32,569 nt of DNA from Promethearchaeota archaeon (GCA_048939905.1 JBHLPB010000003.1:1-32569), one strand, 5' to 3'. Numbered from the stretch's first letter, positions 11,325-30,519 are shown. The notes: generated by a model not told the origin, from the sequence alone. Made by a program: numbers and translations.

Positions 11325-11816
11325 TTGAAGAGCATTCTATCTATCGAAGCAAACGCTTGCACGGGTTGTCGGAACTGCGAGATTGCATGTTCGATAGTTC
11401 ACACAAAGTCATTCAATCCTGCTAGGTCACTGATACGGATACTGAAAGACGAAACCCACGCGCTGATAGTACCCATGGTCTGCCTACAATGCGAGGCCCC
11501 GCTCTGCAAGGCTGCCTGCCCAACAGACGCCATCATTGAGAACAAGAATGGGATTCTCTACGTGGAGAAGGATGAATGTATAGGCTGCATGAACTGTGTC
11601 ACAGCCTGCATCTATGGTGGGATTGAGATAGACCCTCTGACCAAGAGAGCCGGTAAGTGTGATCTCTGTCAGGGCGATCCTGCATGCGTGAAAGCATGCG
11701 ACTACGGAGCAATCAAGTTCATCGGAGCAACAACTGAAGGACTTGTGCAGCGGAAACAGGGAATCCAAGTGCTCACACAGGTCTACGACCATGAATCACA
11801 GGAGGCACAGCAATGA
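11325..11816 (+). CDS. 4Fe-4S dicluster (DmsB/HydN-like) electron-transfer subunit of AOR 1
   Basis: TTG start; four Cys groups CTGCRNCEIAC, CLQCEAPLCKAACP, CIGCMNCVTAC, KCDLC...C...C; ATGA overlap with the AOR gene. Confidence 0.92.
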   Translation: MKSILSIEANACTGCRNCEIACSIVHTKSFNPARSLIRILKDETHALIVPMVCLQCEAPLCKAACPTDAIIENKNGILYVEKDECIGCMNCVTACIYGGIEIDPLTKRAGKCDLCQGDPACVKACDYGAIKFIGATTEGLVQRKQGIQVLTQVYDHESQEAQQ

Positions 11817-13747: not shown

Positions 13748-13752
13748 TCTGG

Positions 13753-14847
13753 ATGGCAGATCTTCGGGTTGAGATAGCGGGGCTGAAGTTCCGAAACCCT
13801 GTCTTCACCGCTGCAGGACCCACCTCTAGAGACGGCATGACTCTGCTCAACGCGGCGGCAGGTGGAGCAGGAGGACTAGTAGCGAAGACTGTCAGCGTCA
13901 AGCCCGCAGAGGTTCCAAGGCCCAACATGGCAGCCATTGGTCGTGGGAGGATTGTTTCGAGGCGGGGGATTCTCAACGCAGAGCTCTGGAGTGAGTTGCC
14001 GTTCGAGAGATGGTATGAGAAAGAATATGAGATTGCACTCGGGGCAGGTCTTCCCGTGCTAGCCAGTGTGGGCTATACTCCAGAAGAAGTGGCATCACTT
14101 GCACCGAAGATAGAGGAGAAGGGTGTACATGGCATCGAGTTTAGTACACATTACGTCGGTGGCCATACAGAGATAGCCAAGGCACTCAGAGAATCAGTAG
14201 ACATCCCAGTCTTCGCGAAACTGAGCCCAAGAGTCGATGTGACGGAAGTGGCAAAGTCGCTGGACAGATTAGTCGACGGGATTGTTGCTATCAATACATA
14301 CGGACCCTGCTTGAGAATAGACATTGGAACTGGCAGACCAATGCTAGGAAGTGAGCTGGGGCAAGGATGGATGAGTGGTTCAGCACTGAAACCCATAGCC
14401 TTGAGGTGCGTTGCAGATATTGCGAGGTCTACAAAGAAACCTATCATTGGTGTCGGCGGAGTCATGAAGGGAGAGGACGCAATTGAGTTCTTCATGGCAG
14501 GCGCCTCAGCAGTTGAGGTTTGCACTGCTGCAATCCTTGAAGGTGACACAGTCTACGGACGCATTGTATCTGAGATTCAGGAATGGCTTGACGAACATGG
14601 CCACAGTTCAGTCGAAGATGTCAGGGGCATGGCACTTCCGCATCTTAAGAGAGGCATTGTTTTAGAGCCCCCACCTAAGGTTGATCGAGAGCGATGTACG
14701 CTTTGTGGACTCTGTAGGAAATCATGCGTTTACCATGCAATCTCAATAGACAAGGCCAAGGGTACTTTCGAGATAAGCAAAGAAGCATGCGAGGCATGCG
14801 GTATGTGCATCTCAGTCTGTCCACATGATGCGCTTAGCGTCGACTAG
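13753..14847 (+). CDS. Dihydroorotate/dihydropyrimidine dehydrogenase (PreA-like) FMN protein with C-terminal 2x[4Fe-4S] domain; atypical active-site loop
   Basis: NPVFTAAGP, VAKT, LNAELWS, PVFAKLSP, AINT, SGSALKPIAL, IIGVGG, AGASAVEVCT; C-terminal CTLCGLC...C and CEACGMC...CP; IEFSTHY in place of ELN-x-SCP. Confidence 0.85.
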   Translation: MADLRVEIAGLKFRNPVFTAAGPTSRDGMTLLNAAAGGAGGLVAKTVSVKPAEVPRPNMAAIGRGRIVSRRGILNAELWSELPFERWYEKEYEIALGAGLPVLASVGYTPEEVASLAPKIEEKGVHGIEFSTHYVGGHTEIAKALRESVDIPVFAKLSPRVDVTEVAKSLDRLVDGIVAINTYGPCLRIDIGTGRPMLGSELGQGWMSGSALKPIALRCVADIARSTKKPIIGVGGVMKGEDAIEFFMAGASAVEVCTAAILEGDTVYGRIVSEIQEWLDEHGHSSVEDVRGMALPHLKRGIVLEPPPKVDRERCTLCGLCRKSCVYHAISIDKAKGTFEISKEACEACGMCISVCPHDALSVD

Positions 14848-17133: not shown

Positions 17134-17424
17134 TTGACGACTTTGGCAACAGTCACTGTAAAGTTCTTCGCAACAGTTCGCGAGGCAGTAGGTAGGAGAA
17201 GTGCTGAGATAGAGGCTGCGAACATAAGAGAACTGCTGGAGCTTCTCAAACAGAAATACGGGAAACGCTTCACCGATACAGTGATTGATGATAAAACTGG
17301 TGAGCTGAAGAGGTTCTACCAGTGCATGGTCAATGGAAAGCGCATTGAGCTTCTGGACGGATACGAAACAGAACTGAATGATTATGACTCCGTGGCGCTT
17401 TTCCCTCCCGTTGGAGGAGGCTAG
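17134..17424 (+). CDS. MoaD/ThiS-family sulfur carrier, ubiquitin-like small archaeal modifier (SAMP1-like)
   Basis: VKFFATVRE, VNG...LDGYETEL, C-terminal ALFPPVGGG; TTG start at 17134 or 17143. Confidence 0.92.
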   Translation: MTTLATVTVKFFATVREAVGRRSAEIEAANIRELLELLKQKYGKRFTDTVIDDKTGELKRFYQCMVNGKRIELLDGYETELNDYDSVALFPPVGGG

Positions 17425-17450
17425 GACCCCAAATCAGTCCTAAGAGAGGT

Positions 17451-18818
17451 ATGGCATCCATGGTTGACCTGGTCGTAAAGAATGCACGACTTCTACTGGA
17501 ATCAGGATTAGCGAAGGGAGGAATTGGAGTTGAGCAGGGCCGCATATGCGCAATCGCGAGAGACGAGCATCTGCCCGACGCAGATACCGTAGTTGACGCC
17601 GAGGGCAACATCCTGATGCCTGGTCTCATCGATGGTCATGCTCACATTCACGACCCCACTATGCCGGACCACGAGGACTTCACAACCGGTTCTCGCGCTG
17701 CAGCTGCTGGAGGTGTCACGACTCTTATTGACATGCCCTTAACCAATCAGGTTGATACGCCCCAGGTTGTGGACGAGAAAATCAAACAGGGAGAGCAAAT
17801 GTCGATTGTTGATTTCTCGTTCTATGCAGGAATGCTAAGCTCAGAGAACTACCCGATGATACCGTCTATGGTCGAAAGGGGGATCGCGGCCTTCAAGGCT
17901 TTTACTTGCGAACCATATCCAGTACATGACGGAGTCCTGGTCCAAGCACTGAGTACGGTTTCCGAGTACGGCGGACATGTGACGGTGCACTCAGAGAATC
18001 AGGGTGTCTTAGATGAGTTCGGGAAGGAGATGGAGGGAGAATGGGACGCCCCCATCAGTCACTCCCTCGCAAGACCAAACCTTGCAGAACAACTCGCAAT
18101 CAGACAGATGGTCAGTATTGCAGAGCAGACTCAGGGACACTTGCATGTGGCACACGTCACCACGAGGGAAGGTATTGTTGAGGTTGAACGCGGAAAGCTG
18201 AGAGGTGTGATGACAACCACTGAAGTATGTCCACACCATCTTGTTTTCCAAAGGGATGACATGAATCGACTTGGCCCCAAGAGCAAGATGAACCCACCAC
18301 TCAGGGCCAAACAGGACAGGTCAGCTATGTGGTCAGCCCTGCTGAGAGGCACAATTGACATGACCGTGAGTGATCATGCGCCGTGTCCTTTGGAGAAGAA
18401 GGAAGCAGGTGCTGAAGATATCAGAGAGGCATGGTCAGGAGTCGACGGAATTCAAATGATTCTAAGAGTCCTTCTTTCAGAAGGAATCAACAAGGGTCGA
18501 CTGTCATTCACAAGACTCCTCAACGTAGCCTCGTGTAGTCCTGCCAAGGTATTTGGACTCTACCCTAGAAAGGGGGTACTTCAGGTTGGAGCCGACGCCG
18601 ACTTTGTCGTATTGGACCACACAAAGGAAGAGAAGATCAGCTCGGACATGATGTTCTCCAAGTGTGGATGGACACTCTACGAAGGTATGAATATGAAGGG
18701 AGTGCCTCTCAAGACTTACGTACGGGGCACGCTTGTTTTTGAAACTGACAGGACCACAGTGGAGCCAGGTCATGGAAGATTCCAATCTATGAGCGGCATG
18801 AAACCATTTGAGGACTGA
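17451..18818 (+). CDS. Cyclic amidohydrolase, allantoinase/dihydroorotase/hydantoinase family
   Basis: PGLIDGHAH, AAAAGGVTT-x-IDMPL, FKAF (carbamylated Lys), HSEN, HVAHVT, EVCPHHL, KMNPPLR, SDHAPC, GADAD. Confidence 0.92.
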   Translation: MASMVDLVVKNARLLLESGLAKGGIGVEQGRICAIARDEHLPDADTVVDAEGNILMPGLIDGHAHIHDPTMPDHEDFTTGSRAAAAGGVTTLIDMPLTNQVDTPQVVDEKIKQGEQMSIVDFSFYAGMLSSENYPMIPSMVERGIAAFKAFTCEPYPVHDGVLVQALSTVSEYGGHVTVHSENQGVLDEFGKEMEGEWDAPISHSLARPNLAEQLAIRQMVSIAEQTQGHLHVAHVTTREGIVEVERGKLRGVMTTTEVCPHHLVFQRDDMNRLGPKSKMNPPLRAKQDRSAMWSALLRGTIDMTVSDHAPCPLEKKEAGAEDIREAWSGVDGIQMILRVLLSEGINKGRLSFTRLLNVASCSPAKVFGLYPRKGVLQVGADADFVVLDHTKEEKISSDMMFSKCGWTLYEGMNMKGVPLKTYVRGTLVFETDRTTVEPGHGRFQSMSGMKPFED

Positions 18819-18821
18819 ACA

Positions 18822-19313
18822 ATGACAATACGAGAGTTCGTATTTGGAGACCCAGAGGTGTGCACTGGATGCATGATCTGTGTGAACGTGTGCAGCATGC
18901 ACTACTTCAAGGTGATAGGACCGGCATGGTCTCGTGCCAGAGTTGTGAGAGTAGAACCAGGGCTTGACTTCCCTCTGTTCTGTCGCAACTGCGAAGATGC
19001 GCCTTGCATTGACTCTTGTCCGGAAAAGGCTCTCAGCAGGACATCAAAGGGAGTCGTGATAGTGAACAACAAGAAGTGCAAGGGACATGGTGCCTGCATC
19101 GCTGCATGTCCATACAATGCAATCCATTTGAATCCGGACACTCAGAAGGCTATCAAGTGTATCCAGTGCGGCAGATGCGTAGAGCGGTGCCCAGTGAACG
19201 CAATCTGGACTACAACGGACGAAGAGCTCCAGAAGATGGATTCAGACGGAAGGCTTGCAGGGCACTATGAAAGAAACAAGGCCGAGATCTATGGCAAGGA
19301 GGGCTTCCGGTGA
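18822..19313 (+). CDS. 4Fe-4S dicluster electron-transfer subunit of AOR 2
   Basis: CTGCMICVNVC, CRNCEDAPCIDSCP, CKGHGACIAACP (His in place of one Cys), KCIQCGRCVERCP; GTGA overlap with AOR 2. Confidence 0.92.
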   Translation: MTIREFVFGDPEVCTGCMICVNVCSMHYFKVIGPAWSRARVVRVEPGLDFPLFCRNCEDAPCIDSCPEKALSRTSKGVVIVNNKKCKGHGACIAACPYNAIHLNPDTQKAIKCIQCGRCVERCPVNAIWTTTDEELQKMDSDGRLAGHYERNKAEIYGKEGFR

Positions 19314-21190
19314 TCAAAGGAATAGGTGGGAACATCATCTGGGTAGACCTAGCGAAGGGAGAGATAGAGAAGCGACCAGTCGAGGAAGAGATGGTCAGAC
19401 AGTATCTTCTTGGAGCTGGATACCTATCCAGGGTTATCTTCGACCTGGTCCCGGTAGGCACAGATCCTTTCTCACACAAAAACGTCCTCGGAATTGCGAC
19501 GGGGCTGCTCACAGCATCGATGTTTCCGCAGGCGTCGCGTCATGTCGTGGCGGCACTGTCTCCCCTCACGGATGTTTGGGGAGAGTCGCACGCGGCCGGA
19601 TTCTGGGGGCCAGAGTTGAAACTGGCAGGTTACGACGCGGTAGTATTCACTGGTGCCTCTTCAGACCCGGTGTATCTCAATATTGAGAACAGCAAGGTCG
19701 AACTCCTGGACGCAAGTGAGATTTGGGGAACATCCGTCTTTCATACAGACGACTGGATTAGAGAGAAACACGACCGACAGACCAGAGTGCTCTCAATTGG
19801 TCAGGCAGGAGAGAATCTTGTAAGATTCGCTGCAGTGATGAACGACAGAGACAGAGCGTCAGCAAGATCCGGACTCGGCGCAGTCATGGGGGCGAAGAAA
19901 CTGAAGGCAGTTTCCGTACGGGGAACTGGGAAAATAGAGGTTGCAGACCCGCAGAACTACCTGAAGCAAATGGACATATTCTATAAGCGCATGTTGGCCA
20001 ACCCTTTCACGGAGGAGAGAGCGAAGTACGGTACAACAAACCTGGTCGAACTCATGGATCACATAGGCAGGCTCCCCAGCTATAACATGAAACAGGGCGT
20101 CTTTGAGGGTTACGAGAAGATCAGTGGAGAAACCATTACCAGGGAGTATCTAGTGAAACCGCGCTCGGATTGGAGCTGCTTGCAGAGATGTGGCAGATAC
20201 ACGAGAGTGAAGGATGGCCCCTATAAGTACATAGGCGGGTCTCCCGAATTCGAGTCCCAGTCATCACTTGGTTCTCGTTGTGGGAATGATAACATAGAGT
20301 CCGTGCTCTATTCGCATCATCTCTCTAACCTATACGGCATGGATACTATCTCTCTTGGTGGCACAATCTCTTGGGCTATGGAGGCCTGGGACGAGGGACT
20401 CATCACAGCAGAAGACACTGGAGGAATAGACCTCTCTTGGGGCAACCACGAAACGGTGGTCAAGTTGACTGAGATGATCGCGCTGAGAGAAGGATTCGGA
20501 GATATCCTAGCCGAGGGAAGCGCTAGGGCTGCCGAGAAGATTGGGCGCGGCACTGACAGGTTCGTGATGACTGTGAAGAAGCAGGAAATGGCAGGCCAAG
20601 AACCCAGAGCGCAGAAGTCCATGGGTCTAGCAGCAGTGACAGCGGCACGGGGGGCAGATCACCTCTACTCATTTCCGGTCCTAGACGAGGCCGGATTTGA
20701 CGACGAGATAAAGGAGCGTTTCGGAGAACAGTATCTTCCTGAGATGGCTGACAGATTGAACCCGAAGTACAAGGGTATAATGGTGAAAGAATGCGAGGAC
20801 TTCATGGTAGTTGTCGAAAGCGTAGGACTATGCAAGTATGGTACGCAGATTCCTCCGGAGTTCTACTATGACGACGTTGCTCTTGCTCTTAAGATTCACA
20901 ATGGGCTTGAGTTCACAGTGGAGGAGCTGCAGGTGATTGGAGAGAGAATTGTAAACCTGAACCGTCTGTTCAATGTAGCACGTGGGGTGACTCGTAGAGA
21001 TGATCAGCTGCCTGACAGGCTCACAAAGGAGAAGGCCCCCAAGGGACCGCCCAAGGGCCAAGTTGTCGAACTTGACCAGATGCTTGACGAGTACTATCAA
21101 GTGAGAGGATGGGAGGTTGAAACGGGACTCCCTCTGAAAAGCACGCTTGAGCGACTGGGTTTATCGAAGGATGCTGAAGGAGTTGTCTAG
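19310..21190 (+). CDS. Tungsten-containing aldehyde:ferredoxin oxidoreductase family protein (AOR 2)
   Basis: 626 aa; SPLT...ESHAAG, RSGLGAVMGAKK, GRLPSYN, DWSCLQRC, SPEFE, YGMDTIS, RGADHL, VESVGLCKY, LDEYYQVRGW. Confidence 0.95.
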   Translation: MIKGIGGNIIWVDLAKGEIEKRPVEEEMVRQYLLGAGYLSRVIFDLVPVGTDPFSHKNVLGIATGLLTASMFPQASRHVVAALSPLTDVWGESHAAGFWGPELKLAGYDAVVFTGASSDPVYLNIENSKVELLDASEIWGTSVFHTDDWIREKHDRQTRVLSIGQAGENLVRFAAVMNDRDRASARSGLGAVMGAKKLKAVSVRGTGKIEVADPQNYLKQMDIFYKRMLANPFTEERAKYGTTNLVELMDHIGRLPSYNMKQGVFEGYEKISGETITREYLVKPRSDWSCLQRCGRYTRVKDGPYKYIGGSPEFESQSSLGSRCGNDNIESVLYSHHLSNLYGMDTISLGGTISWAMEAWDEGLITAEDTGGIDLSWGNHETVVKLTEMIALREGFGDILAEGSARAAEKIGRGTDRFVMTVKKQEMAGQEPRAQKSMGLAAVTAARGADHLYSFPVLDEAGFDDEIKERFGEQYLPEMADRLNPKYKGIMVKECEDFMVVVESVGLCKYGTQIPPEFYYDDVALALKIHNGLEFTVEELQVIGERIVNLNRLFNVARGVTRRDDQLPDRLTKEKAPKGPPKGQVVELDQMLDEYYQVRGWEVETGLPLKSTLERLGLSKDAEGVV

Positions 21191-21192
21191 AT

Positions 21193-21708
21193 ATGACAGA
21201 TGAAAGCACAGATTGGTTCCAAGTCAAAATGGACACCACAGTAGAGGATTACATCAAGACTGCAGGTGCCAAACTCGTGTCATTGATATGAGGGTTTGAG
21301 GAAACCTTAGGAAAAGACCGAGCTCATCAAATCGTATCCGATTGGGCGGAGCAGAATTCCATCAATGACGTTCGGAGCGTAATAGAGTCACTAGAGAAGC
21401 CTGTACAGGACTTCGAGGATGTCAAGGCACTTCTCAGACACTGGGTCAAAGAGCTTAATGACAACAACATCGAAACTGTTGAGACCGTGAAGGAAACTGC
21501 TGACAGATCATTCTGCCATGTGACTGAATGTGTTTGCGCAAAGGTGTACAGTGATCTTGGGGCTCCAGACATCGGACATCTGCTCCACTGCAAACATGAT
21601 TTTGCTGCTGCACCATCAATCCACCTCAAGGATGTACTAGATGGGACCAAGACTCTTATGGAGAAGCATGACTGCTGTGACTTCGAGTACTACCGGTCAA
21701 GCGACTAG
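21193..21708 (+). pseudogene. L-2-amino-thiazoline-4-carboxylate (ATC) hydrolase-like / V4R-like protein interrupted by an in-frame TGA
   Basis: ATG 21193: MTDESTDWFQVKMDTTVEDYIKTAGAKLVSLI*GFEETLGKDRAHQIV...VTECVCAKVYSDLGAPDIGHLLHCKHDF...TKTLMEKHDCCDFEY; TGA at 21289-21291, same frame continues to TAG 21708. Confidence 0.7.
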
Positions 21709-21748
21709 AAACAACGACTGCATGAAGCAGCCTACTTCTCAGCAGTGG

Positions 21749-21994
21749 TCACTCATATGCCGCGCAGACATTGGTTACAGTATCCTTGACGCCATCCACC
21801 TTCCTGAGGGAATCGACAACAAAGGAGCTGAGGGACTCAGGAGTCTTGAAGACGCCCTTGATGAGCAGGTCATAGGCACCATAGATGAGGTGAGCCTCCT
21901 CAACCTCATTCAGTTCTCGTACACTATTCAGCACATCACGTGCCTTTGACGACTCAACTTTAGCCATTATGAAAGCGGTAATCACGACATACAC
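21749..21994 (-). CDS. Stand-alone Lrp/AsnC ligand-binding (RAM) domain protein
   Basis: AFIMAKVE...EVEEAHLIYGAYDLLIK...LRKVDGVKDTVT; no HTH. Confidence 0.88.
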   Translation of the reverse strand: MYVVITAFIMAKVESSKARDVLNSVRELNEVEEAHLIYGAYDLLIKGVFKTPESLSSFVVDSLRKVDGVKDTVTNVCAAYE

Positions 21995-22133: not shown

Positions 22134-22174
22134 GTAGATAAATACCAGTAGAATTCAACTGCGTAGAAATCTAC
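22134..22174 (+). promoter_or_regulatory. Three tandem GTAGA-N2-TCTAC-like palindromes, probable PadR operator array
   Basis: GTAGATAAATAC (22134-45), GTAGAATTCAAC (22148-59), GTAGAAATCTAC (22163-74, perfect), directly upstream of the padR start. Confidence 0.6.
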
Positions 22175-22180
22175 CTAGTT

Positions 22181-22729
22181 GTGTCCTGGATGAGCAAGCA
22201 AATCAAACTGTTCCTTCCCACACCTGAAAAGCTCACTCCCATTCAACTTCTTGTCATGATTCAACTCCTCGGAACCTCAAAATACGGTTACGAGATTATC
22301 AGAAGCCTTCGAGAGGGCTTCAAAGGTTCATGGGAACCTAAGACTGGAACTGTATATCCGGCTCTTCGTGCCTTGGAGAAGAAGGGAATCATTGCAAAGA
22401 GCATGGTTTCTGAGAAGACGCACTACAGTCTAACAGTCAAAGGTAGAGGAATAATGCAAGAGATCAGTGACTACGTTGCTGATTATCTCTTGTTTAACTC
22501 AAGATTCATTGAATCCACTGTAGACAGCATGCCCCCGTCCTTCACTCAAGAAGTCTTCAGCAAGATCCACGAGGCCGGCATTGATGAGATTCTTCCAGAA
22601 GCAACGATTCTGGAAGCCATTCGACAACTTTCTGACAATGACTTGAAGAGAGCCTTTCTTGAGTTGCGAAAGGAAACGCTTCTGCGTAAGCTCGGGCTTG
22701 TGAGGAAGCAATTGAAAGATCTGGACTAA
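22181..22729 (+). CDS. PadR-family transcriptional regulator
   Basis: YGYEII...WEPKTGTVYPALRALEKKG...HYSLTVKG winged-HTH signature. Confidence 0.92.
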   Translation: MSWMSKQIKLFLPTPEKLTPIQLLVMIQLLGTSKYGYEIIRSLREGFKGSWEPKTGTVYPALRALEKKGIIAKSMVSEKTHYSLTVKGRGIMQEISDYVADYLLFNSRFIESTVDSMPPSFTQEVFSKIHEAGIDEILPEATILEAIRQLSDNDLKRAFLELRKETLLRKLGLVRKQLKDLD

Positions 22730-22741
22730 TGAGGTGATGAA

Positions 22742-24145
22742 ATGAAAGAGTATGATGTTGTAATCGTAGGCGCTGGTCCGGGCGGGTCTCTTGCAGCAAA
22801 GGAGGCTGCAGAGAAGGGTCTCAAGACCATCTTCTTCGAGCGCGGTAGAAAACCTGGAGAGAAGAACTCCTCCGGTTGTGGATTGGGACCTCGTCTGTGG
22901 AGGGAATTTGACTTCATGGAGGAGCTCAATCCCGAAACGTGTCCATCTATGAGACCTGGTGCTGCAGCTAGGAACTACTTTGTTAGTGCTGACGGCGAGG
23001 TAACTGGCTACATAATGACCAGACCGACTGAATCAGTGACCTATGAGCCTGCGAAGAGCTGGATCACAATGAACTGTTATCGAAGTGAGTTTGATCCTTG
23101 GCTTGCGCAGTTAGCTGTTGATGCTGGAGCAGAGCTGAAGACGTCAACACTTGTAACAGGCCTGCTGAAGGAAGATGGCAAGGTCACTGGGACTGTTGAC
23201 GAAAAGGGGGAGAAGTACAAGGGATTCGTCATAGGGGCAGATGGTGCTGTTTCGATGGTTGCCCAACAATCAGGTCTTCGGCAGAGATGGAGGCAGGAAC
23301 AGACAACACTGACACTCCAGTATGATTTCGAGTGTTCATCGTCTAAGATAGACGACATAATGGGTGATGAAGCTCTAGCTGTGTGGTGGTCTGCCACATT
23401 TCCCGCTGCGTATCAGGTGTTCTTCAATTCTAGTTTCCATATCGGGTTTGGAAACTGGATGACTTGGTGGGACAAGAACCCCGTTCACTATCTGAATAAG
23501 GTAATCAACCTGAAGTACTTCAAACGATTGATCAGGATTTTGGGTGCGAAACCTCGAGAGTTTCAGGCTCATCTTCTACCTTGGCAAGGAATGCCAGAGA
23601 ATACACACACTGACAATGTGATACTCATCGGTGATGCTGGAGGATTCCCGTGTCCACTTGAGGCAGAGGGGATCTATCCAGCCATGGTGACTGGAAGAGC
23701 TGCGATTGAAACCGTAGCTGAAGCAATATCCGCGGGTGACACTTCCAAGCAGTTTCTCTCTCTCTACGATGAGAAATGGATGGCGACCTCGGTTGGAGAC
23801 GACTTCAAGTCGGGCCCGGAACTGCAGAGCATCTGGATGGCACTTCCCTTCAGTCCAAGGAAATCAATGTCCTGGTTCGTACCATTGTTCATGGAAGTCT
23901 TAGGTGGAATCATTGACTGGTCCGAACCCCACCCCGTTAGAATACGACAAGTCGCGCGGAGAATCAAACAGTATCTCCCTCAATTAGTGCCGTTCATAGT
24001 GAAAGAGGTGATTCCACTCCTGACTTCGGTACTAGGTGAGGACAGAATGAATATGCTAATGGATCCTGAGAAACTACTTACTGAGATGCCAGAAATCGAA
24101 GAGGCCATAGCTATGGCCTTCATGACAGATGAGGAGGAGGAATGA
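22742..24145 (+). CDS. FAD-dependent oxidoreductase, FixC / geranylgeranyl reductase superfamily
   Basis: YDVVIVGAGPGG, ERGRKPGEKN, YRSEFDPWL, IGADG, LIGDAGG...EGIYPAMVTG; GAGGTGA RBS. Confidence 0.9.
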   Translation: MKEYDVVIVGAGPGGSLAAKEAAEKGLKTIFFERGRKPGEKNSSGCGLGPRLWREFDFMEELNPETCPSMRPGAAARNYFVSADGEVTGYIMTRPTESVTYEPAKSWITMNCYRSEFDPWLAQLAVDAGAELKTSTLVTGLLKEDGKVTGTVDEKGEKYKGFVIGADGAVSMVAQQSGLRQRWRQEQTTLTLQYDFECSSSKIDDIMGDEALAVWWSATFPAAYQVFFNSSFHIGFGNWMTWWDKNPVHYLNKVINLKYFKRLIRILGAKPREFQAHLLPWQGMPENTHTDNVILIGDAGGFPCPLEAEGIYPAMVTGRAAIETVAEAISAGDTSKQFLSLYDEKWMATSVGDDFKSGPELQSIWMALPFSPRKSMSWFVPLFMEVLGGIIDWSEPHPVRIRQVARRIKQYLPQLVPFIVKEVIPLLTSVLGEDRMNMLMDPEKLLTEMPEIEEAIAMAFMTDEEEE

Positions 24146-24420
24146 CGAGATTGAAGATAGACCACAAGAAGCTTGTGAAGAGAATTCCCGGTACTGGCGA
24201 CTTCATCAGCATAGACAACGACAAGTGTACTTTGTGCGACCGTTGCCTCATCATCTGTGTGATGAGCCTCTGGAAGAAACGCGATGACATAGTGTACATC
24301 GTAGACGACTATACCTCACAGTGTCTGGAGTGCGGAGCATGCCAGCAGGTATGTGAGAGTGATGCAATAGAATTCAGATTCCCTGCTGGAGGAACAGGAA
24401 TAGTCATCGAGCAGGGTTAA
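24142..24420 (+). CDS. Ferredoxin, FixX-like
   Basis: CTLCDRCLIIC and CLECGACQQVC...FRFPAGGTGI, the latter matching the FixX C-terminal pattern; ATGA overlap with the FixC-like gene. Confidence 0.85.
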   Translation: MTRLKIDHKKLVKRIPGTGDFISIDNDKCTLCDRCLIICVMSLWKKRDDIVYIVDDYTSQCLECGACQQVCESDAIEFRFPAGGTGIVIEQG

Positions 24421-24427
24421 CAATGAC

Positions 24428-25885
24428 ATGACAAGGAAGCGGGTAACAAGAATGATTCCAGCGGTAACCAAGATTGTTGGAGAGGATAGAGTCACCAGCA
24501 AATCAGAGATACTGGAGGACTACTCAGGACTCAATTCGCCTGCACTGGTTGTCTGGCCAAAGTCAACTGATGAAGTTGCCAAGATCGTAGAATGGGCGAA
24601 TTCAAACTCAGTGGCACTTGTTCCTGTTAGCTCTGGAGGGCCTCGACGCCGAGGCTCATCTACGCCCAAGGTAGACAACGCCGTGATTGTTGACCTTAGT
24701 AGAATGAACAAGATAATTCGAGTTGACACAAAGAACAAGGTCGCGATGTTTGAGCCTGGAGTCACATTTGAGCAGCTTATTCCGGAGCTCAAGAAGAAGG
24801 GACTACGACCACTGATGCCTCTCCTTCCTAAAGCATCAAAATCTGTTCTGGCAAGCTGCCTTGACAGAGAGCCAACCACAATCCCGCGATTTCATTGGGA
24901 TATTTCCGACCCACTCCTGTGCACTGAAACCGTGTTTGGGTCTGGTGAAACATTGAGGACTGGCTCTGCTGCAGGACCTGGCACAATAGAGGAACAGTGG
25001 GCCTCAGGGCAAGCGCAGAAGAATCCTCAGGGACCCTCCCAGTTTGACCCATTCAGGATAATCCAGGGTTCACAAGGAACCATTGGCATTACCACGTGGA
25101 TTTCGATGAAGTGTGAACTTCTGCCAGACGTGCATGAGATCTATCTCACAGGAGTGGAAGAACTTGGTCAGCTCGAGGCATTCAATTACGCTCTGCTAAA
25201 GCGACGGCTAGTAGATGAACACTTTCTGCTAAACTCTGTATCATTATCTGCAGCCCTTGGCTCCAAGAGGAAGACTCCCAACTGGGTCTTGGTTCTGGGT
25301 GTTTCTGGACACGGAATTCTCGCTCAGGAGGAACTCGAATATCGAACTGAAGACACTATGGACATTGCAGAAGAGATGAACTTGAAATTGACAAGGTCAC
25401 TTGGTGATATCAAAGCTGACGAAGTGAAATCTCTTCTTAACAGGTCTAGTAGCGCATCCTACTGGAAGTACTCTCCACGAGGCAGTTGCAGTGAAGTCTT
25501 CTTCACAACAACTCTGGACCAAGTTGCAGAAATGCACTCAGCCTTCTTAGAGGTGGCAGATGAAGTTGGCGTTCCTAAAGAACAGATTGGTGTCTATGTC
25601 CAACCTGTGGTCCAAGGAGTGAATACACACTGTGCCTTTGATATTCATTATGACCCAGACAGCGGCGAAGAAGTCGAATCAGTGAGTGCCCTCCTGGACA
25701 AGGGGCAACACAGGTTATTGGATGAAGGAGCGTTCTTCAGCAGACCCCACGGCATCATCACTGACCTGGTGTTCGAGAAGACCACGCCTGAAATGGTTGA
25801 AGCAATTCAGAGTGTCAAGAAGATCTTTGACCCCAAGAATGTGCTGAATCCTGGAACTCTCTGCTTCAAGGAGGTGCCGAAATGA
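24428..25885 (+). CDS. FAD-binding oxidoreductase, VAO/PCMH (GlcD-like) family, subunit 1
   Basis: VVWPKSTDEV, VDLSRMNKI, FEPGVTF, GSQGTIGI, KKIFDPKNVLNPG. Confidence 0.88.
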   Translation: MTRKRVTRMIPAVTKIVGEDRVTSKSEILEDYSGLNSPALVVWPKSTDEVAKIVEWANSNSVALVPVSSGGPRRRGSSTPKVDNAVIVDLSRMNKIIRVDTKNKVAMFEPGVTFEQLIPELKKKGLRPLMPLLPKASKSVLASCLDREPTTIPRFHWDISDPLLCTETVFGSGETLRTGSAAGPGTIEEQWASGQAQKNPQGPSQFDPFRIIQGSQGTIGITTWISMKCELLPDVHEIYLTGVEELGQLEAFNYALLKRRLVDEHFLLNSVSLSAALGSKRKTPNWVLVLGVSGHGILAQEELEYRTEDTMDIAEEMNLKLTRSLGDIKADEVKSLLNRSSSASYWKYSPRGSCSEVFFTTTLDQVAEMHSAFLEVADEVGVPKEQIGVYVQPVVQGVNTHCAFDIHYDPDSGEEVESVSALLDKGQHRLLDEGAFFSRPHGIITDLVFEKTTPEMVEAIQSVKKIFDPKNVLNPGTLCFKEVPK

Positions 25886-27153
25886 TTCTGGAGCAGTTTG
25901 AAGACATGATGGACAGCTGTGTCCGGTGTTCCAAGTGCAAGTACATTCCACAGATAGCAATCAAGAGCCAGAGGTTCTCACACATCTGTCCTTCAGTCCA
26001 ATACTACAACTTCCATGCGTATTCGGGCGGCGGTAGGATGATAATGGCAAACGCCTACCACAAAGGCAGACTCAAATGGACTCCTGAGATGCTTGACATT
26101 CTGTATCAATGCACGAACTGCGGAGGATGTGAGGTTTCCTGTAAATGGGTCTATGATCTTGAGCCAAACGAAGTCATTCACGAACTGAGAGCCATCGCTG
26201 TTGAATCCGGCGTAGGACCGATGCCCAAGCACAAGAAGTACATTGAGCTCGTGGAACGTTACAACAACCCCTACGGGGAACCACGAGAAAGGAGGCCTGC
26301 CTGGCTCACTGAAGACGTCCGTGTGGATAAGGATTCGTCAACTCTATACTTCGTAGGATGCACCGCGGCCTACCGCAGAGAAGAGATTGCTCTGAGTACT
26401 GCTCGAGTGCTTAATGCAGCCAACGAGAGTTTCAGCCTACTAGAGTCAGACGAACTATGCTGTGGAAGTCCTGTCTATCGTGTTGGCGATCGGAATAGGG
26501 CAATCGAGATTATGAAACGCAACCTTGAGCTCTTCCTGGAGAAGGGCGTGCGGAGAATCATAACGAGTTGCTCTGGTTGTTACAACATGCTGAAGACGGA
26601 ATACCCTCGGTTTGTCAACACGGACTTTGAGGTGATTCATACTTCACAACTTATAGACGGACTTCTCAAAGAGGGAAGGCTGAAGCCAAAGAAGGAAATC
26701 GCGCTCAAAGTCACATATCACGACCCCTGTCACCTGGGACGAATGTCTGAACCCTATGAGGCCTACGAGGGAGAACAGTTCGAACTGCTGTCTCAGGTCT
26801 TTGTATGGGACCCTCCGAAACCCCCCAGGCAGGGCACAAATGGAGTCTATGATGCCCCCCGGAATGTTCTGAAACAGCTCCCAGGAGTAGAACTTGTTGA
26901 GATGGAGAGGATTCGAGAATACTCCTACTGCTGCGGTGCAGGAGCTGGATGCAAGTCCGCATATCCAGACTTCGCACTCTTTGCTTCAAACCAACGCGTA
27001 GATGAGGCGGAAGCGACGGGAGCTCAAGCTATGGTCTCAGCTTGCCCGTTTTGCAAGACCAGTCTAGTGGATGCATTGGAAACCAGAGAGAATCCGATGG
27101 ACTTCTTCGACGTGACTGAGCTTGTCCTGAGAAGTCTGGAGGGAGGTGAGTAG
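25882..27153 (+). CDS. Fe-S oxidoreductase with two CCG domains (HdrD/GlcF/GlpC-like)
   Basis: CVRCSKC...CP, CTNCGGCEVSC, YFVGC, ELCCG, TSCSGC, YHDPCHLGR, CCGAGAG, SACPFC. Confidence 0.93.
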   Translation: MILEQFEDMMDSCVRCSKCKYIPQIAIKSQRFSHICPSVQYYNFHAYSGGGRMIMANAYHKGRLKWTPEMLDILYQCTNCGGCEVSCKWVYDLEPNEVIHELRAIAVESGVGPMPKHKKYIELVERYNNPYGEPRERRPAWLTEDVRVDKDSSTLYFVGCTAAYRREEIALSTARVLNAANESFSLLESDELCCGSPVYRVGDRNRAIEIMKRNLELFLEKGVRRIITSCSGCYNMLKTEYPRFVNTDFEVIHTSQLIDGLLKEGRLKPKKEIALKVTYHDPCHLGRMSEPYEAYEGEQFELLSQVFVWDPPKPPRQGTNGVYDAPRNVLKQLPGVELVEMERIREYSYCCGAGAGCKSAYPDFALFASNQRVDEAEATGAQAMVSACPFCKTSLVDALETRENPMDFFDVTELVLRSLEGGE

Positions 27154-28737
27154 ATGTTGGAAGACGACGTCTACCATAAGCTCCGTGTTGTGGTCGGAGA
27201 ACAATACATCACAAGGACTCCCGCAATCCTGGACACCTACGCGTTCCAATGGTGCTACGAGATTGAGAGCGTCCAGAGAGGGGAGGAGCCTTCAAGGTTC
27301 GGTATAAGGCCAGCAGCGGTTGTTCTGCCTCATACTACAGAGGAAGTTCAGTCAATTGTTAGAGTCTGCAATGAGCATGATGTGAAGTTCAAACCAATTA
27401 GCACTGGCATGGGACCATGGGCTGGGGTTTCAAATCCTAGGTCAATCCAGATTGACCTTCGGAGAATGAATAGAATCGTTGAGATTGATTCCAAGAACAT
27501 GTATGCGGTCATCGAACCATACGTCACAAATGCTGAGCTACAGGCGGAGCTATTCAGGTATGGTCTAATGCATCACGCACAGGGAGCGGGGCCACAGACC
27601 TCTCCATTAGCAAGTCACACGTCATTTGTGGGACCTGGATTCACTTCGCCGTACACTGGGTTCAGCGGGCGCAACCTGCTTGGTGTGGAGTGGGTGCTGC
27701 CCAATGGCAAACTGCTCAAGGTTGGTTCTTTCGAGTATACAGGTAAGTGGTTTAGTGCAGATGGTCCCGGATTCAGCATGCGAGGCGTTATTCGTGGATG
27801 GATGGGTGCCTACGGTGGTCTTGGAGTGTTCACAAAGGCGGCTATCAAGCTCTATTCTTGGCCTGCTCCAAAGGACTGGACTTGGGAGATTGGTGGGACA
27901 ATCCCCCATTATGAGTGGAACGTACCACGATACTGGAGGATGTTCGTGCTCAACTTCCCTGAGTGGGAGCAGTTTGAACCGGCTTTCTATGAGGTCAATG
28001 ATCATGACGCTGTCATGATGGCAAGCTGCTCTTCAGGCGAGGGGCTTGCCGCACTGCTCACCGACACCAAGCTGGAGGCAATTGAGGCCATATTTGGAGG
28101 TTTGACCAACGTCGCGAGGAGGTACTTTTTGGTCCTAGTTACAGCACACACAGAACGTGAGTTCAATTACCGGACCAAACTCATCCAAGCCATAATGGAG
28201 AAACATGGAGGAAACGATCTCATTCAAGACGAAGTAGTCGTGCCCAGAAGCTCCCATTACGCCGAGTCTGTGAGGAACATGTTGGGATGTCATGCGTTCA
28301 GATTCTCCAATTGTTTCCAGAGTACTCACGGAGGAATGGACTCCATCGCCTTGGCTGTAAGAATTGCGAAAGTGAACCAGCCCATAAAGGCGAAGTACAT
28401 AGAGAAGGGGGTCATTGGTGATGACAGAGGAGAAGGAGTCTGGACCACTGCCTATGAAGGGGGTCACACGGCGCACCTCGAAGTACCTACAGTCTACAAC
28501 GCTGCATCTAAGGAATCGTGCAGAGGATATGCAGAGTATCAAGACGAATGCAACGAGGTTGACCTGCAGCAAGCCCTGGGCATGCCTTTCTTCATTGTGG
28601 GCGATGCAGTTCACGACTATTACGGGCCCCGTACAATGTACTACCCCAAATGGCTAAGGAAAATCAAAGCAACATTCGACCCGAAAGGTGTAGGAGACTC
28701 AAGTCACTACATCTCTGCGAAACTAGACGAGGAATAG
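27154..28737 (+). CDS. FAD-binding oxidoreductase, VAO/PCMH family, subunit 2
   Basis: PAAVVLPHTTEEV, PISTGMG, IDLRRMNRI, VIEPYVT, LGVEWVLPNG, GGLGVFTK, IKATFDPKG; own RBS GGAGGTGA. Confidence 0.88.
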   Translation: MLEDDVYHKLRVVVGEQYITRTPAILDTYAFQWCYEIESVQRGEEPSRFGIRPAAVVLPHTTEEVQSIVRVCNEHDVKFKPISTGMGPWAGVSNPRSIQIDLRRMNRIVEIDSKNMYAVIEPYVTNAELQAELFRYGLMHHAQGAGPQTSPLASHTSFVGPGFTSPYTGFSGRNLLGVEWVLPNGKLLKVGSFEYTGKWFSADGPGFSMRGVIRGWMGAYGGLGVFTKAAIKLYSWPAPKDWTWEIGGTIPHYEWNVPRYWRMFVLNFPEWEQFEPAFYEVNDHDAVMMASCSSGEGLAALLTDTKLEAIEAIFGGLTNVARRYFLVLVTAHTEREFNYRTKLIQAIMEKHGGNDLIQDEVVVPRSSHYAESVRNMLGCHAFRFSNCFQSTHGGMDSIALAVRIAKVNQPIKAKYIEKGVIGDDRGEGVWTTAYEGGHTAHLEVPTVYNAASKESCRGYAEYQDECNEVDLQQALGMPFFIVGDAVHDYYGPRTMYYPKWLRKIKATFDPKGVGDSSHYISAKLDEE

Positions 28738-28740
28738 AGC

Positions 28741-29820
28741 ATGGAAACAACGATTAGCCCAAAAGTCAAGGAGGGTTGGACCGGACCTGGAAGACGTGAC
28801 GGAACGATAGTTCCGCTGAAGCCTGAAGATGATGCTCTCCACATTGAGGTGGGAAAAAAGAACCAGTTTGAATGGTGGTACTTTGATGCCCATCTCGAAG
28901 GAGGATACACACTGGTGGCATTCTTCTATGCTGCATATCCAAATCCTGGACTTGACCAAGGAAAGACTGCAGTTGAGTTGACACTTCTAAGACCAGATGG
29001 ACGCAAGACTCAGAAAGTGGTCAAGTACAAAAAACGAGACCTCTATGCTTCACGAGAGAAACCTGATGTCAGAATTGGCAATAACTACATGGAGGCGGAA
29101 TTCTCCGATGACGGTCTCTCAATCTATGAGATATTCTTGGAGGATGAGGATCTCATGTTCCATCTGACCTACAAGGCGCAAGTAAAGGGTTGGAAACCTG
29201 GTACCGGCTATTCGCATTTTGCAGACAGGGGTCATTTCGCATGGGTGGTCCCTTTTCCAAGAGCCTCGGTTGAGGGAACTGTAAGAGATGGAGATATGAC
29301 AATGTCGGTAACAGGAGTGGGATATCATGATCACAATTGGTTGAACTTCCCATTCCAGAATATCATTGAGTACTGGATGTGGGGCAGAGTCTACTCTGAG
29401 AGCTTCACAGTTTCATATGCTTTCATTCAATGCAACGACAAGGTGGACCGACACGCGGTGAAGGTCTTGATGTTGGCGAAGGGGGAGGATGTTATTCTAA
29501 GCAGTGGAGAATATGATCTGACTGTGGAGAACTTCGAGTATGATGATAGAGCAGGTCACCAATTCCCCAAGACTCTAACACTCACAGATCCAGGCAACCT
29601 CAAAGTAACACTAGAAGTCCAGAGAGTCTTGGAAGCTGAGAACATGCTTGATAACTTCAACGTCTTTCTCAGGTTTGTTGCGGGAAAAATCCTAAGATTG
29701 AAGCCGGGTTATTTCAGGCTGCTCTCGGACTTCAAGATTAGAGCGACACTAGAAGGACAGACGCATGAAGAGGTTGGTACAACATTACATGAGATTGTTG
29801 CCTTCAAGGCGATTGAGTAG
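28741..29820 (+). CDS. CrtC/AttH/tocopherol-cyclase-like (lipocalin-like double beta-barrel) protein
   Basis: FEWWYFDA, FAWVVPFPRA-x-V-x-G, G-x-GYHDHNW and W-x-WGR motifs. Confidence 0.8.
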   Translation: METTISPKVKEGWTGPGRRDGTIVPLKPEDDALHIEVGKKNQFEWWYFDAHLEGGYTLVAFFYAAYPNPGLDQGKTAVELTLLRPDGRKTQKVVKYKKRDLYASREKPDVRIGNNYMEAEFSDDGLSIYEIFLEDEDLMFHLTYKAQVKGWKPGTGYSHFADRGHFAWVVPFPRASVEGTVRDGDMTMSVTGVGYHDHNWLNFPFQNIIEYWMWGRVYSESFTVSYAFIQCNDKVDRHAVKVLMLAKGEDVILSSGEYDLTVENFEYDDRAGHQFPKTLTLTDPGNLKVTLEVQRVLEAENMLDNFNVFLRFVAGKILRLKPGYFRLLSDFKIRATLEGQTHEEVGTTLHEIVAFKAIE

Positions 29821-29838
29821 TGGGCCACGTGATGAGCA

Positions 29839-30519
29839 ATGAGTTCGATTGAGAGATTGAAAACGGTGATTGACGAGCGGCACTTTCCACTATGGGGCAT
29901 AGTCGGATCACTTGTGGGGCTCGTATTCATTCTGGGGGCTCAGATTCCCTACTCTGGAAGATATGGCGAGCCATTCTCGATGCTGAACCATTTCGTGTCG
30001 GAGCTCGGTGAGATTGGAGTTTCAGAGTTCGCATTCCTGTTCAATTCAGGGATGATCCTTGCCGGGCTAGTCTTCATGCCATTCATGATCGGGCTAGGCC
30101 TCTATATGGACAACATCGTTTCAAAGATTGCAGGTGTGGTGGGAGTCTTCTCCGCTGTATCGATATTTCTCGTGGGGATATTCCCCATGAACTACCTGGC
30201 CGAACATAGCATGGCTGCCATGTCGTTCTTCTTCAGTGGCATGATCATGGTAGGGCTCTGGACCTTAGCCATATTGCTACAGAATCAGGTGAAGATACCC
30301 AAAGGTTTCTCCTTGGGAGGAGTGGTCAATTTCGTTATCTTCTTCCTATTCCTCTATGGTCCGTGGGAGTCAGTAGAAGACCTCTCCACTCGTCCTGATC
30401 TCTGGATGGTGCCAACTCTTGAATGGGGCATCTACTTTGCCATAGTCGGGTTCCTGCTAGCATTGTCTGTCTTTGTCTGGAACAAGGAATCCCGTGTCAG
30501 CGGCATTCGGAACGCCTAG
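29839..30519 (+). CDS. DUF998-like membrane protein
   Basis: About 6 TM helices; NHFVSELG, FNSG, VGIFP and H-x-x-x-A motifs. Confidence 0.75.
   Translation: MSSIERLKTVIDERHFPLWGIVGSLVGLVFILGAQIPYSGRYGEPFSMLNHFVSELGEIGVSEFAFLFNSGMILAGLVFMPFMIGLGLYMDNIVSKIAGVVGVFSAVSIFLVGIFPMNYLAEHSMAAMSFFFSGMIMVGLWTLAILLQNQVKIPKGFSLGGVVNFVIFFLFLYGPWESVEDLSTRPDLWMVPTLEWGIYFAIVGFLLALSVFVWNKESRVSGIRNA

Follow-up and report, generated by a model that had tools for sequence, protein, structure and literature searches.

A PadR-led operon of an Asgard archaeon as a possible oxygen-independent module for remodelling isoprenoid-tailed compounds

A tightly packed operon headed by a PadR-type regulatory gene occupies positions 22181-30519 of a 32,569-nt stretch of DNA (hereafter, the window) from an Asgard archaeon (Promethearchaeota archaeon, GCA_048939905.1, JBHLPB010000003.1:1-32569) that named homologues assign to the Thor type. 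Its eight open reading frames (ORFs), all on the + strand, comprise padR (22181-22729, 182 aa), a gene for a GGR/FixC-like FAD flavoprotein (22742-24145, 467 aa), a gene for a 2x[4Fe-4S] ferredoxin (24142-24420, 92 aa), VAO1 (24428-25885, 485 aa), CCG (25882-27153, 423 aa), VAO2 (27154-28737, 527 aa), a gene for a CrtC/AttH-like protein with two lipocalin-type domains (28741-29820, 359 aa) and, finally, one for a DUF998 membrane protein (29839-30519, 226 aa). VAO1 and VAO2 encode divergent flavoproteins of the VAO/p-cresol methylhydroxylase (PCMH) fold, while CCG encodes a putative HdrD/GlcF/GlpC-like iron-sulfur subunit. A preliminary description of this DNA had already listed eight co-oriented genes with overlaps or short gaps; the same coordinates were obtained here, with gaps of -4 to 18 nt (from padR to the DUF998 gene, in order, 12, -4, 7, -4, 0, 3 and 18 nt), and the gene families it had named were all borne out by Pfam. 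GGAGG-like ribosome-binding motifs precede most of the internal genes. All Pfam scores reported below lie above the gathering score, and NCBIfam scores are compared with the curated cut-off of each model; no protein of the operon attains an equivalog cut-off of NCBIfam.

A scan of species-representative genomes with an alignment of VAO2 yielded 603 related stretches, the closest of which, about 80 (79 loci analysed), were used for locus comparisons; because only the top 80 of the 603 are covered, the resulting census describes near and middle relatives. The best 79 of the 603 belong to Asgard archaea of the Thor, Hermod, Jord, Frey, Atabey, Hel, Hod and Loki types; two more records bear the labels Deferrimicrobium and Nitrososphaerota, one each. 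In seven related genomes that were examined first, the order PadR, GGR-like protein, ferredoxin, VAO1, CCG and VAO2 is colinear in five, the CrtC-like gene comes next in two, and the DUF998 gene comes next in none. The census itself was carried out by tblastn with 78 loci containing a full VAO2 as anchor, and only loci with enough flanking sequence were counted as assessable. CCG lies directly upstream of VAO2 in all 73 assessable loci, and VAO1 was found in 57 of 57. The GGR-like gene is present in 30 of 45 assessable loci, as is the ferredoxin gene (30/45), which always accompanies it; the pair has the same orientation as the trio in Thor-type loci and is divergent in Loki-type loci. PadR occurs in 8 of 44 assessable loci and is confined to those of Thor type. 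What is conserved at the core of the cluster is the VAO1-CCG-VAO2 trio, often joined by the GGR-like/ferredoxin pair and by a gene for a hydratase or cyclase. Conservation of gene order had been chosen beforehand as one of two points at which the preliminary description was to be tested, and the order turned out to be strongly conserved across related genomes; since it is kept in other genomes, the association of the genes in the operon is more than chance. The proposed unit of eight genes stands in part only: the trio is invariant and the GGR-like/ferredoxin pair and the hydratase or cyclase gene are frequent, but DUF998 is limited to the operon of this genome and PadR to Thor-type loci.

At a threshold of E <= 1e-90, a VAO2 orthologue was detected in 102 of 301 Asgard genomes that are at least 80% complete and in 31 of 90 high-quality genomes. 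Its frequency depends sharply on the family, reaching 57/91 and 27/71 in two families versus 0/27 and 0/19 in two others, and full-length but more distant relatives occur in Bathyarchaeia and Chloroflexota. Loki-type loci additionally contain a gene for a conserved 231-aa protein, an MFS transporter gene and sometimes an alpha/beta hydrolase gene. In ten Loki/Hermod-type loci a response-regulator receiver protein (~290-318 aa) is encoded between VAO1 and CCG (e.g., L071:6567-7523); because CCG and VAO2 are contiguous even where the response regulator splits VAO1 from CCG, this arrangement suggests that CCG-VAO2 is the tightest unit.

The loci vary in several further respects. Two tandem VAO2 genes, 46-49% identical to VAO2 of the window, follow 3' of CCG in Hel-type loci (L048:9001-12150 and L049:5384-8566), and the loci L055 and L061 harbour a second CCG-VAO2 pair. 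On the contig labelled Candidatus Deferrimicrobium, a bacterium, a gene for an Arf/Rag-family small GTPase adjoins the trio (L049:8818-10041), and this contig may be an Asgard fragment that was binned with a bacterium. In Jord/Frey-type loci (L040-L044) the trio is directly followed by genes for a TdeIII-type restriction endonuclease and a DNA methylase, which replace the carrier and hydratase genes. The CCG gene of Atabeyarchaeia loci appeared to be split, and a possible selenocysteine codon was considered; the split was an artefact of ORF calling and the gene is intact.

The CCG protein consists of two ferredoxin-type motifs and two complete CCG domains (PF02754, 123.7 bits over two stretches, plus Fer4_8), and its score with the TfrB model of NCBIfam is 192 bits versus a cut-off of 385. 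In an alignment of 30 sequences, 10 of 10 CCG cysteines are invariant and the eight ferredoxin cysteines are all invariant or nearly so. Based on these two ferredoxin-type and two complete CCG motifs with their invariant CCG cysteines, the subunit is predicted to be equipped like HdrD, GlcF or GlpC. The invariant trio thus has the make-up of a GlcDEF-type system, with two FAD_binding_4 proteins and one 2x[4Fe-4S]+2xCCG protein, and the combination of two VAO-fold FAD proteins with an HdrD/GlcF-like CCG iron-sulfur protein is shared both with GlcDEF of E. coli and with the trio of ORM2a, an anaerobic benzene degrader of the Desulfobacterota in which it makes up proteins #24-26 of the 'Magic' cluster. 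According to the report on the latter, against which our trio was compared by description only, the ORM2a genes have the same order of flavoprotein, iron-sulfur protein and flavoprotein, their products are similarly far from GlcDEF in sequence (<=23% identity according to the authors), and the trio was modelled as a GlcDEF-like heterotrimer (PMC13101534). The same report names as neighbours genes for a CoA ligase, CoA transferases and MaoC hydratases, in contrast to the GGR-like protein with ferredoxin, the AttH- or tocopherol-cyclase-like protein and SCP2 found here, and describes a CCG protein without some of the cysteines, all of which are kept in the Asgard protein (PMC13101534). The invariance of the trio, the 4-nt overlap or direct abutment (0 nt) of its genes, the constancy of the CCG cysteines and the heterotrimer model for the like-ordered trio of benzene degraders lead us to infer, by analogy and from synteny, that VAO1, CCG and VAO2 would form a complex.

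In Pfam, VAO1 matches FAD_binding_4 (67.1 bits) and FAD-oxidase_C (31.2 bits), and VAO2 matches FAD_binding_4 (86.0 bits) with a cap domain that has no Pfam match. With the glcD model TIGR00387, VAO1 scores 71.3 and VAO2 66.7 bits versus a cut-off of 567.9 bits. The archaeon's genome gave 13 glcD-like matches, of which VAO2 ranks 8th and VAO1 9th, the stronger paralogues scoring 319 (C43), 175, 147 and 135 bits. By these scores and ranks the two proteins are not the standard glycolate/D-lactate dehydrogenase subunits that the preliminary description had set as the outcome speaking against it. The ESM Atlas returned only generic 'FAD-binding oxidoreductase' clusters, and some public sources label homologues 'glycolate oxidase'. 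Single-sequence searches of solved structures recovered the FAD domain only, at ~60 bits and for phenol oxidases and D-lactate dehydrogenase alike. The family profile of VAO1 matched PCMH with 97.7, vanillyl-alcohol dehydrogenase with 89, eugenol oxidase with 85 and mouse D-lactate dehydrogenase with 72 bits; that of VAO2 matched 4-ethylphenol oxidase with 82.5, PCMH with 71 and D-lactate dehydrogenases with 63-64 bits. The profiles therefore put both proteins slightly nearer, by small margins, to PCMH/4-ethylphenol oxidase than to D-lactate dehydrogenase. The AlphaFold model of VAO2, the sole flavoprotein that was modelled (pLDDT 84.9), gave whole-length Foldseek matches to eugenol oxidase (E 5e-25) and mouse D-lactate dehydrogenase (E 8e-25), and VIA-align yielded Z 29.7 for D-lactate dehydrogenase (437 residues, 3.1 A) and Z 27.9 for eugenol oxidase (469 residues). 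By its predicted fold, VAO2 is equally far from D-lactate dehydrogenases and 4-phenol oxidoreductases.

The 4-phenol oxidoreductases provide the best profile matches of both flavoproteins and, for VAO2, a match over the whole fold (TM 0.70-0.74, Z ~27-28, ~470 residues), but identity is <20% and their phenolate-binding Tyr/Tyr/Arg set, which we take to correspond to Tyr108, Tyr503 and Arg504 of VAO, is not kept. In alignments by hidden Markov models at this level of identity, the first tyrosine, that of the GRNxGYG motif, aligns with a residue other than Tyr in VAO1 and with Pro in VAO2; the Tyr-Arg pair reads Ser-Arg in VAO1 and falls inside an insertion in VAO2, so that Arg alone is kept, and in VAO1 only. 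Considering the low glcD scores, the split affinities of profiles and structure, the replaced phenolate tyrosines and the better glcD-like genes elsewhere in the genome, VAO1 and VAO2 stand apart within the VAO/PCMH superfamily as a branch of their own, being neither standard GlcD/GlcE nor standard phenol oxidases. PCMH of Geobacter reportedly has two different alpha subunits. The gene cluster of this enzyme has been linked to a membrane complex (PMC4122944). The present operon differs from PCMH systems in that it has no cytochrome c gene; the gene for the CCG iron-sulfur protein is located between the flavoprotein genes instead.

The GGR/FixC-like protein matches FAD_binding_3 of Pfam with 57.6 bits, and its closest solved relatives are FixC of Thermotoga (7koe_C, 83 bits) and the lipid reductase 3oz2 (68 bits). 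In a genome-wide scan with TIGR02032 it scored 143.1 bits, and six other GGR paralogues exceed the cut-off; by sequence, it is a divergent, seventh and sub-threshold GGR paralogue and not the housekeeping lipid reductase. Scores with the FixC model NF007542 (79.4 bits versus a cut-off of 610) and the FixX model (25.4 versus 166 bits) are low. The catalytic motifs of GGR enzymes have been named, in a review, as a conserved Cys, LxGD and PxxYxWxFP (PMC10821996), the first two of which are present as the Cys-containing SGCGLG and as LIGD. The gene overlaps by 4 nt with that of the ferredoxin, which shows two CxxCxxCxxxC motifs in translation and matches of the Fer4 family. With the gene for a GGR/FixC-superfamily flavoprotein (FAD_binding_3) placed ahead of one for a small ferredoxin, the arrangement resembles that of GGR in M. 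acetivorans and of FixCX. According to the same review, the lipid reductase of M. acetivorans requires the ferredoxin of its own locus, and archaeal FixC-type GGR paralogues with adjacent ferredoxins are uncharacterised (PMC10821996). The operon protein differs from these systems in its sub-cut-off TIGR02032 score, the inexact PxxYxWxFP motif and the absence of EtfAB/FixAB genes from the locus, the electron-transfer flavoprotein (ETF) genes of the genome being located on contigs C100 and C12.

The product of the gene following VAO2 carries the N-terminal CrtC lipocalin domain (PF07143, 31.8 bits versus a gathering score of 22.5). Within its family (n=27), CrtC and Diels-Alderase N-domain (DA_N) matches occur in 27 and Svf1_C matches in 24 members; with the NCBIfam model of carotenoid 1,2-hydratase CrtC (NF045922) the protein reaches 15.5 bits versus a cut-off of 400. 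The N-terminus is hydrophilic with no transmembrane-like segment, and the protein looks cytoplasmic. Characterised members of the AttH/CrtC family hydrate isoprene double bonds, according to a recent preprint (10.1101/2025.10.20.683597), and the CrtC/AttH-like protein is a candidate isoprenoid double-bond hydratase or cyclase. Among 64 loci with sufficient sequence downstream of VAO2, 35 have the CrtC-like gene, 9 a gene of the tocopherol-cyclase family, none both and 20 neither. The tocopherol-cyclase-family substitute (326-331 aa; PF14249, 81-88 bits versus a cut-off of 26.6; e.g., L070:11070-12053) holds the slot of the CrtC-like gene between otherwise nearly identical flanking genes. The two families are distantly homologous: by hhalign, their profiles align over 157 columns with motifs in common (probability 70.7%, E 3.8e-5).

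In four Thor-type genomes the gene next to VAO2 encodes a 141-aa SCP2 protein (PF02036), and in Loki-type loci this position is taken by a gene for a 134-138-aa protein without Pfam match. Between the latter and the Thor-type SCP2 no profile similarity was found (hhalign probability 0.3%), and a profile search of the PDB was also blank. Its structural model (pLDDT 84.3), however, has an SCP2 fold with the SCP2 domain of UbiJ as the top match (E 4.6e-5, TM 0.62/0.69), followed by sterol carrier proteins. The CrtC-like gene or its cyclase-like substitute comes after this carrier gene. At least one lipid-type gene is located downstream in 54 of 66 loci, across Asgard phyla.

The CrtC-like proteins of Asgard archaea share ~60% identity with those from records that carry the labels Anaerolineales, Proteobacteria or Nitrososphaerota (L090, G332), and the protein is far better kept than the flavoproteins, VAO2 being only 42-46% identical among more distant Asgard loci; this hints that the gene is under strong constraint or was recently transferred. 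When the CrtC-like profile was run over 201 genomes of the phylum to which the L090 genome belongs, three matches were obtained, two of them near-orthologues, and none of these three was an example linked to Ted, the tetraether desaturase discussed below. The last gene of the operon encodes a protein with ~6 hydrophobic segments that matches DUF998 (PF06197) with 40.3 bits. DUF998 was found in 0 of 64 assessable related loci and in 0 of 8 loci of the first comparison, and a single weak match lies ~9 kb off in locus L031. In the window, this gene occupies the place which in the three closest relatives (L021-L023), 3' of the CrtC-like gene, is held by a convergent gene for a 428-aa radical SAM protein without B12 domain and a 176-aa ORF without family.

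PadR was assigned by PF03551 (E 5.4e-15, 55.6 bits versus a cut-off of 27 bits); its gene starts with GTG, with the ATG at 22191 as a second possible start. A perfect 12-bp palindrome, GTAGAAATCTAC (22163-22174), ends 7 nt before the GTG and lies just downstream of an A/T-rich, TATA-like stretch. It matches once in the window, versus 0.03 matches expected. The pattern GTAGANNTCTAC has nine exact matches in 1.165 Mb of sequence from the 79 related loci, all between -90 and +30 nt from the start of a padR ORF, and is present in 8 of 10 padR-bearing loci. The palindrome is, as a sequence pattern, a good candidate operator for auto-repression by PadR. The regulators differ between lineages, with PadR in Thor-type loci and the response regulator and the conserved 231-aa protein in Loki-type loci.

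The literature searches made here did not turn up any account of this Asgard cluster or of its combination of enzyme families. A START-domain preprint was considered as an account of the cluster and rejected, as it concerns another fold. The closest analogues are GlcDEF, the GlcDEF-like trio of anaerobic benzene degraders, the pair Ted/Hgs, and GGR with its ferredoxin. Ted and Hgs are a B12 radical SAM tetraether desaturase and an AttH-like synthase of hydroxylated glycerol dialkyl glycerol tetraethers (GDGTs); in the preprint describing them, an AttH/CrtC-family protein is likewise tightly coupled to a redox enzyme acting on isoprenoid chains, and the logic is similar in that a double bond of the chain is made or used and water is then added (10.1101/2025.10.20.683597). 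The redox partner in our cluster differs, being a putative flavoprotein/iron-sulfur complex and not a radical SAM enzyme. A further likeness exists to SCP2 carriers of the UbiJ/UbiT type, as an SCP2-fold protein follows VAO2 in relatives with UbiJ-SCP2 as best match, and to the tocopherol cyclase of plants and cyanobacteria, a member of whose family is encoded by the next gene in some relatives. UbiJ presents prenylated intermediates to soluble enzymes. Based on the UbiJ-like SCP2 carrier and the tocopherol-cyclase-family gene of relatives, a prenylated quinol or phenol is proposed as substrate. The window differs from the Ubi and tocopherol-cyclase systems in having neither the carrier nor the cyclase gene, and the cluster contains no genes for quinone synthesis.

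Taken together, we tentatively favour, with slightly less than even confidence, the view that the operon is an inducible, oxygen-independent module by which a lipophilic compound with an isoprenoid tail is remodelled; the head group that we prefer is a prenylated phenol or quinol. Four separate components argue for an isoprenoid or a lipid as the ligand: the reductase of the GGR family together with its ferredoxin, the AttH/CrtC-type protein, the tocopherol-cyclase-type protein that can take its place, and the SCP2-fold carriers. The choice of head group was guided by this cyclase-type protein, by the resemblance of the carrier to UbiJ and by the leaning of the flavoprotein profiles towards PCMH. 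The favoured type of molecule would be a chromanol, tocopherol or prenylquinone. The varied regulators, the transporter and hydrolase genes and the patchy occurrence among genomes are more readily reconciled with an accessory role than with core biosynthesis, and the direction is probably catabolic or that of a salvage pathway; inducibility is suggested by the lineage-varied regulators, the nearby MFS and alpha/beta-hydrolase genes, the occurrence in 102 of 301 genomes and the conserved palindrome at padR. In the mechanism we propose, PadR would be bound at the palindrome over its own promoter and be released by a hydrophobic or phenolic ligand, and the substrate would be kept in the cytoplasm by lipid-binding proteins, including the SCP2-fold carrier in relatives. 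The CrtC/AttH-like protein might protonate a trisubstituted prenyl double bond and add water, while in the case of the tocopherol-cyclase-like substitute the neighbouring phenolic oxygen would be added instead, leading to ring closure; both steps could possibly run in reverse. VAO1 and VAO2 would act as a GlcDE-like pair dehydrogenating the head group or an activated carbon, and the electrons would pass to the HdrD-like CCG subunit in place of the cytochrome c subunit of PCMH. The small ferredoxin may feed the GGR/FixC-like flavoprotein so that prenyl double bonds are reduced, a step that may use the electrons released by the VAO/CCG dehydrogenation.

Several observations weigh against this proposal. 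The GGR-like protein stays under the cut-off of its family in spite of a full-length alignment (TIGR02032, 142 bits versus 158.8, positions 1-297 of 297), and its third GGR motif reads VWWSATFP, an inexact version of PxxYxWxFP. The phenolate-binding Tyr/Tyr/Arg set is, with moderate confidence given alignments at <20% identity, not kept in VAO1 and VAO2, and the structure comparison of VAO2 does not favour phenol oxidases (Z 29.7 for mouse D-lactate dehydrogenase versus 27.9 for eugenol oxidase). The CrtC-like protein of the window has no tocopherol-cyclase match in Pfam, nor was a PF14249 match found in the organism's genome, which is 74% complete. The operon has no SCP2 gene, the SCP2 homologue of the genome lying on another contig among unrelated genes, and the cluster contains neither an aromatic prenyltransferase nor a methyltransferase. 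The prenylated or phenolic hydrophobic substrate put forward in the preliminary description is thus partly upheld: the SCP2 carriers, the cyclase swap and the PCMH-leaning profiles speak for it, but the phenolate residues are not kept and the structure ties D-lactate dehydrogenase with eugenol oxidase. It might further be speculated that Asgard archaea make or dismantle a vitamin-E-like chromanol or prenylquinol without oxygen, by a PCMH-like pair using water in place of O2, an HdrD-like electron sink, ring closing or opening by the cyclase/AttH-type proteins, and SCP2 holding the lipid in the cytoplasm; we consider this more specific version unlikely. To our knowledge, Asgard archaea are usually regarded as having no quinones. 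SCP2, Svf1-like lipocalins and tocopherol cyclase are otherwise best known from eukaryotes and plastids.

Other explanations would account for parts of the cluster. It might remodel the membrane lipids of the cell itself, as an Asgard counterpart of Ted/Hgs without the radical SAM enzyme that would control how saturated the isoprenoid chains are: the GGR-like protein and ferredoxin would reduce, the VAO-CCG proteins would oxidise, and the AttH-like protein would hydrate, or its substitute cyclise, a double bond of the chain to give hydroxylated or ring-bearing archaeal lipids. Such a role would be in line with the union of a GGR-family enzyme, a ferredoxin, an AttH-like protein and SCP2-fold carriers in one cluster, and with the finding that the AttH-like Hgs makes hydroxy-GDGTs from double bonds made by Ted, with overlapping ted and hgs genes (10.1101/2025.10.20.683597). 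Ted, however, belongs to the B12 radical SAM enzymes, and no gene for such an enzyme is located in or beside the operon, the nearest radical SAM gene of the window being located at 2710-3813 on the other strand. We know of no VAO-fold flavoenzyme that desaturates unactivated alkyl chains, which also counts against a lipid-modifying function of this kind. Moreover, the authors of the preprint state that Asgard archaea have no Hgs homologues at a BLASTP threshold of 1e-80 (10.1101/2025.10.20.683597), and the CrtC-like family can therefore be no more than distantly related to Hgs. The patchy distribution (102/301), the inducible-type regulators and the MFS transporter are a better fit to an accessory or catabolic role, and we regard remodelling of the cell's own membrane as rather improbable.

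Alternatively, the trio might be a dehydrogenase for soluble aromatics, such as lignin-derived 4-alkylphenols or p-cresol-type compounds, or for an activation as in benzene degraders, with the lipid-type neighbours handling hydrophobic aromatics in general. The top profile matches (PCMH, vanillyl-alcohol dehydrogenase, eugenol oxidase and 4-ethylphenol oxidase) and the PadR regulator of the operon would suit this function, but the phenolate-binding residues are not conserved. A trio of the same order (FAD, Hdr-like Fe-S, FAD) constitutes the three most abundant proteins in anaerobic benzene degraders (PMC13101534); the CoA ligases, CoA transferases and hydratases flanking it there are absent here. 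With respect to habitat, Loki-3 archaea were stimulated by lignin and humic acids in isotope-probing incubations (PMC8027215), and DNA of the present stretch was recovered in sediment and mangrove metagenomes (five runs with at least half of its words, from two studies). An aldehyde:ferredoxin oxidoreductase (AFOR) encoded just upstream would fit as well, yet this neighbour is conserved in 0 of 8 related loci, and the GGR-like enzyme, the hydratase/cyclase swap and the SCP2 carriers would be left unexplained, which makes a function directed at soluble aromatics unlikely. Very unlikely, in our view, is an ordinary 2-hydroxyacid dehydrogenase of the GlcDEF or D-lactate type serving fermentative energy metabolism, with the FixCX-like pair draining off the electrons and no functional tie to the neighbouring lipocalin and SCP2 genes. 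The GlcDEF architecture, the public naming of homologues as 'glycolate oxidase', FixC as the closest match of the GGR-like protein among solved structures and the top structural Z of VAO2, which belongs to mouse D-lactate dehydrogenase, an enzyme that also accepts hydrophobic 2-hydroxy acids, are all compatible with such an enzyme. VAO1 and VAO2 nevertheless score about one-eighth of the glcD equivalog cut-off in a genome that holds clearly better glcD-like paralogues (319, 175, 147 and 135 bits), and the ETF genes are on other contigs. The features of GlcD-type enzymes presumably include a C-terminal GEHG-type active-site motif and a His/His/Glu metal site, and the former was not seen in the consensus sequences of the VAO families. 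Lipid-type neighbours that are kept across Asgard phyla (54/66 loci) are, in addition, hard to attribute to chance.

With its marker VAO2 present in 102 of 301 genomes from many families, the cluster ranks among the more widespread metabolic modules of Asgard archaea that still await characterisation. If the remodelling of prenylated quinols, chromanols or isoprenoid lipids that we favour is correct, it would bear on the diet of sediment archaea, that is, on plant and algal lipids or lignin-type phenols, and would assign a function to GlcDEF-like complexes of two flavoproteins plus HdrD, which are very abundant in anaerobic benzene degraders. Should the chromanol version hold, the prokaryotic lineage closest to eukaryotes would possess an oxygen-independent chromanol or prenylquinone pathway. 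The conserved candidate operator of PadR and the compactness of the operon make the proposal directly testable by heterologous expression.

The operon is flanked upstream by the AFOR gene and downstream, on the other strand, by a gene for a GYD-domain protein and the archaeal leucyl-tRNA synthetase gene. A functional tie between the upstream AFOR and the operon was considered and dropped; AFOR has no match in eight related loci, and thus the adjacency is not conserved. The window contains two modules of a polyferredoxin gene followed by an AFOR gene (11325-14847 and 18822-21190), the first of which is followed by a gene for a DHODH-like Fe-S flavoprotein, while the second ends ~1 kb upstream of padR. 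Between this AFOR and padR (21327-21949) there are two putative ORFs without family, one of 102 aa on the + strand (21641-21949) and one of 107 aa on the - strand (21327-21650). A cytoplasmic histidine kinase of 593 aa with multiple PAS domains and no adjoining response regulator is encoded at 9258-11039 on the - strand. Immediately upstream of the second ferredoxin-AFOR pair, genes for a ThiS/MoaD-like small protein and an amidohydrolase follow each other (17134-18818), and this unit may be related to the tungsten/molybdenum cofactor or be degradative.

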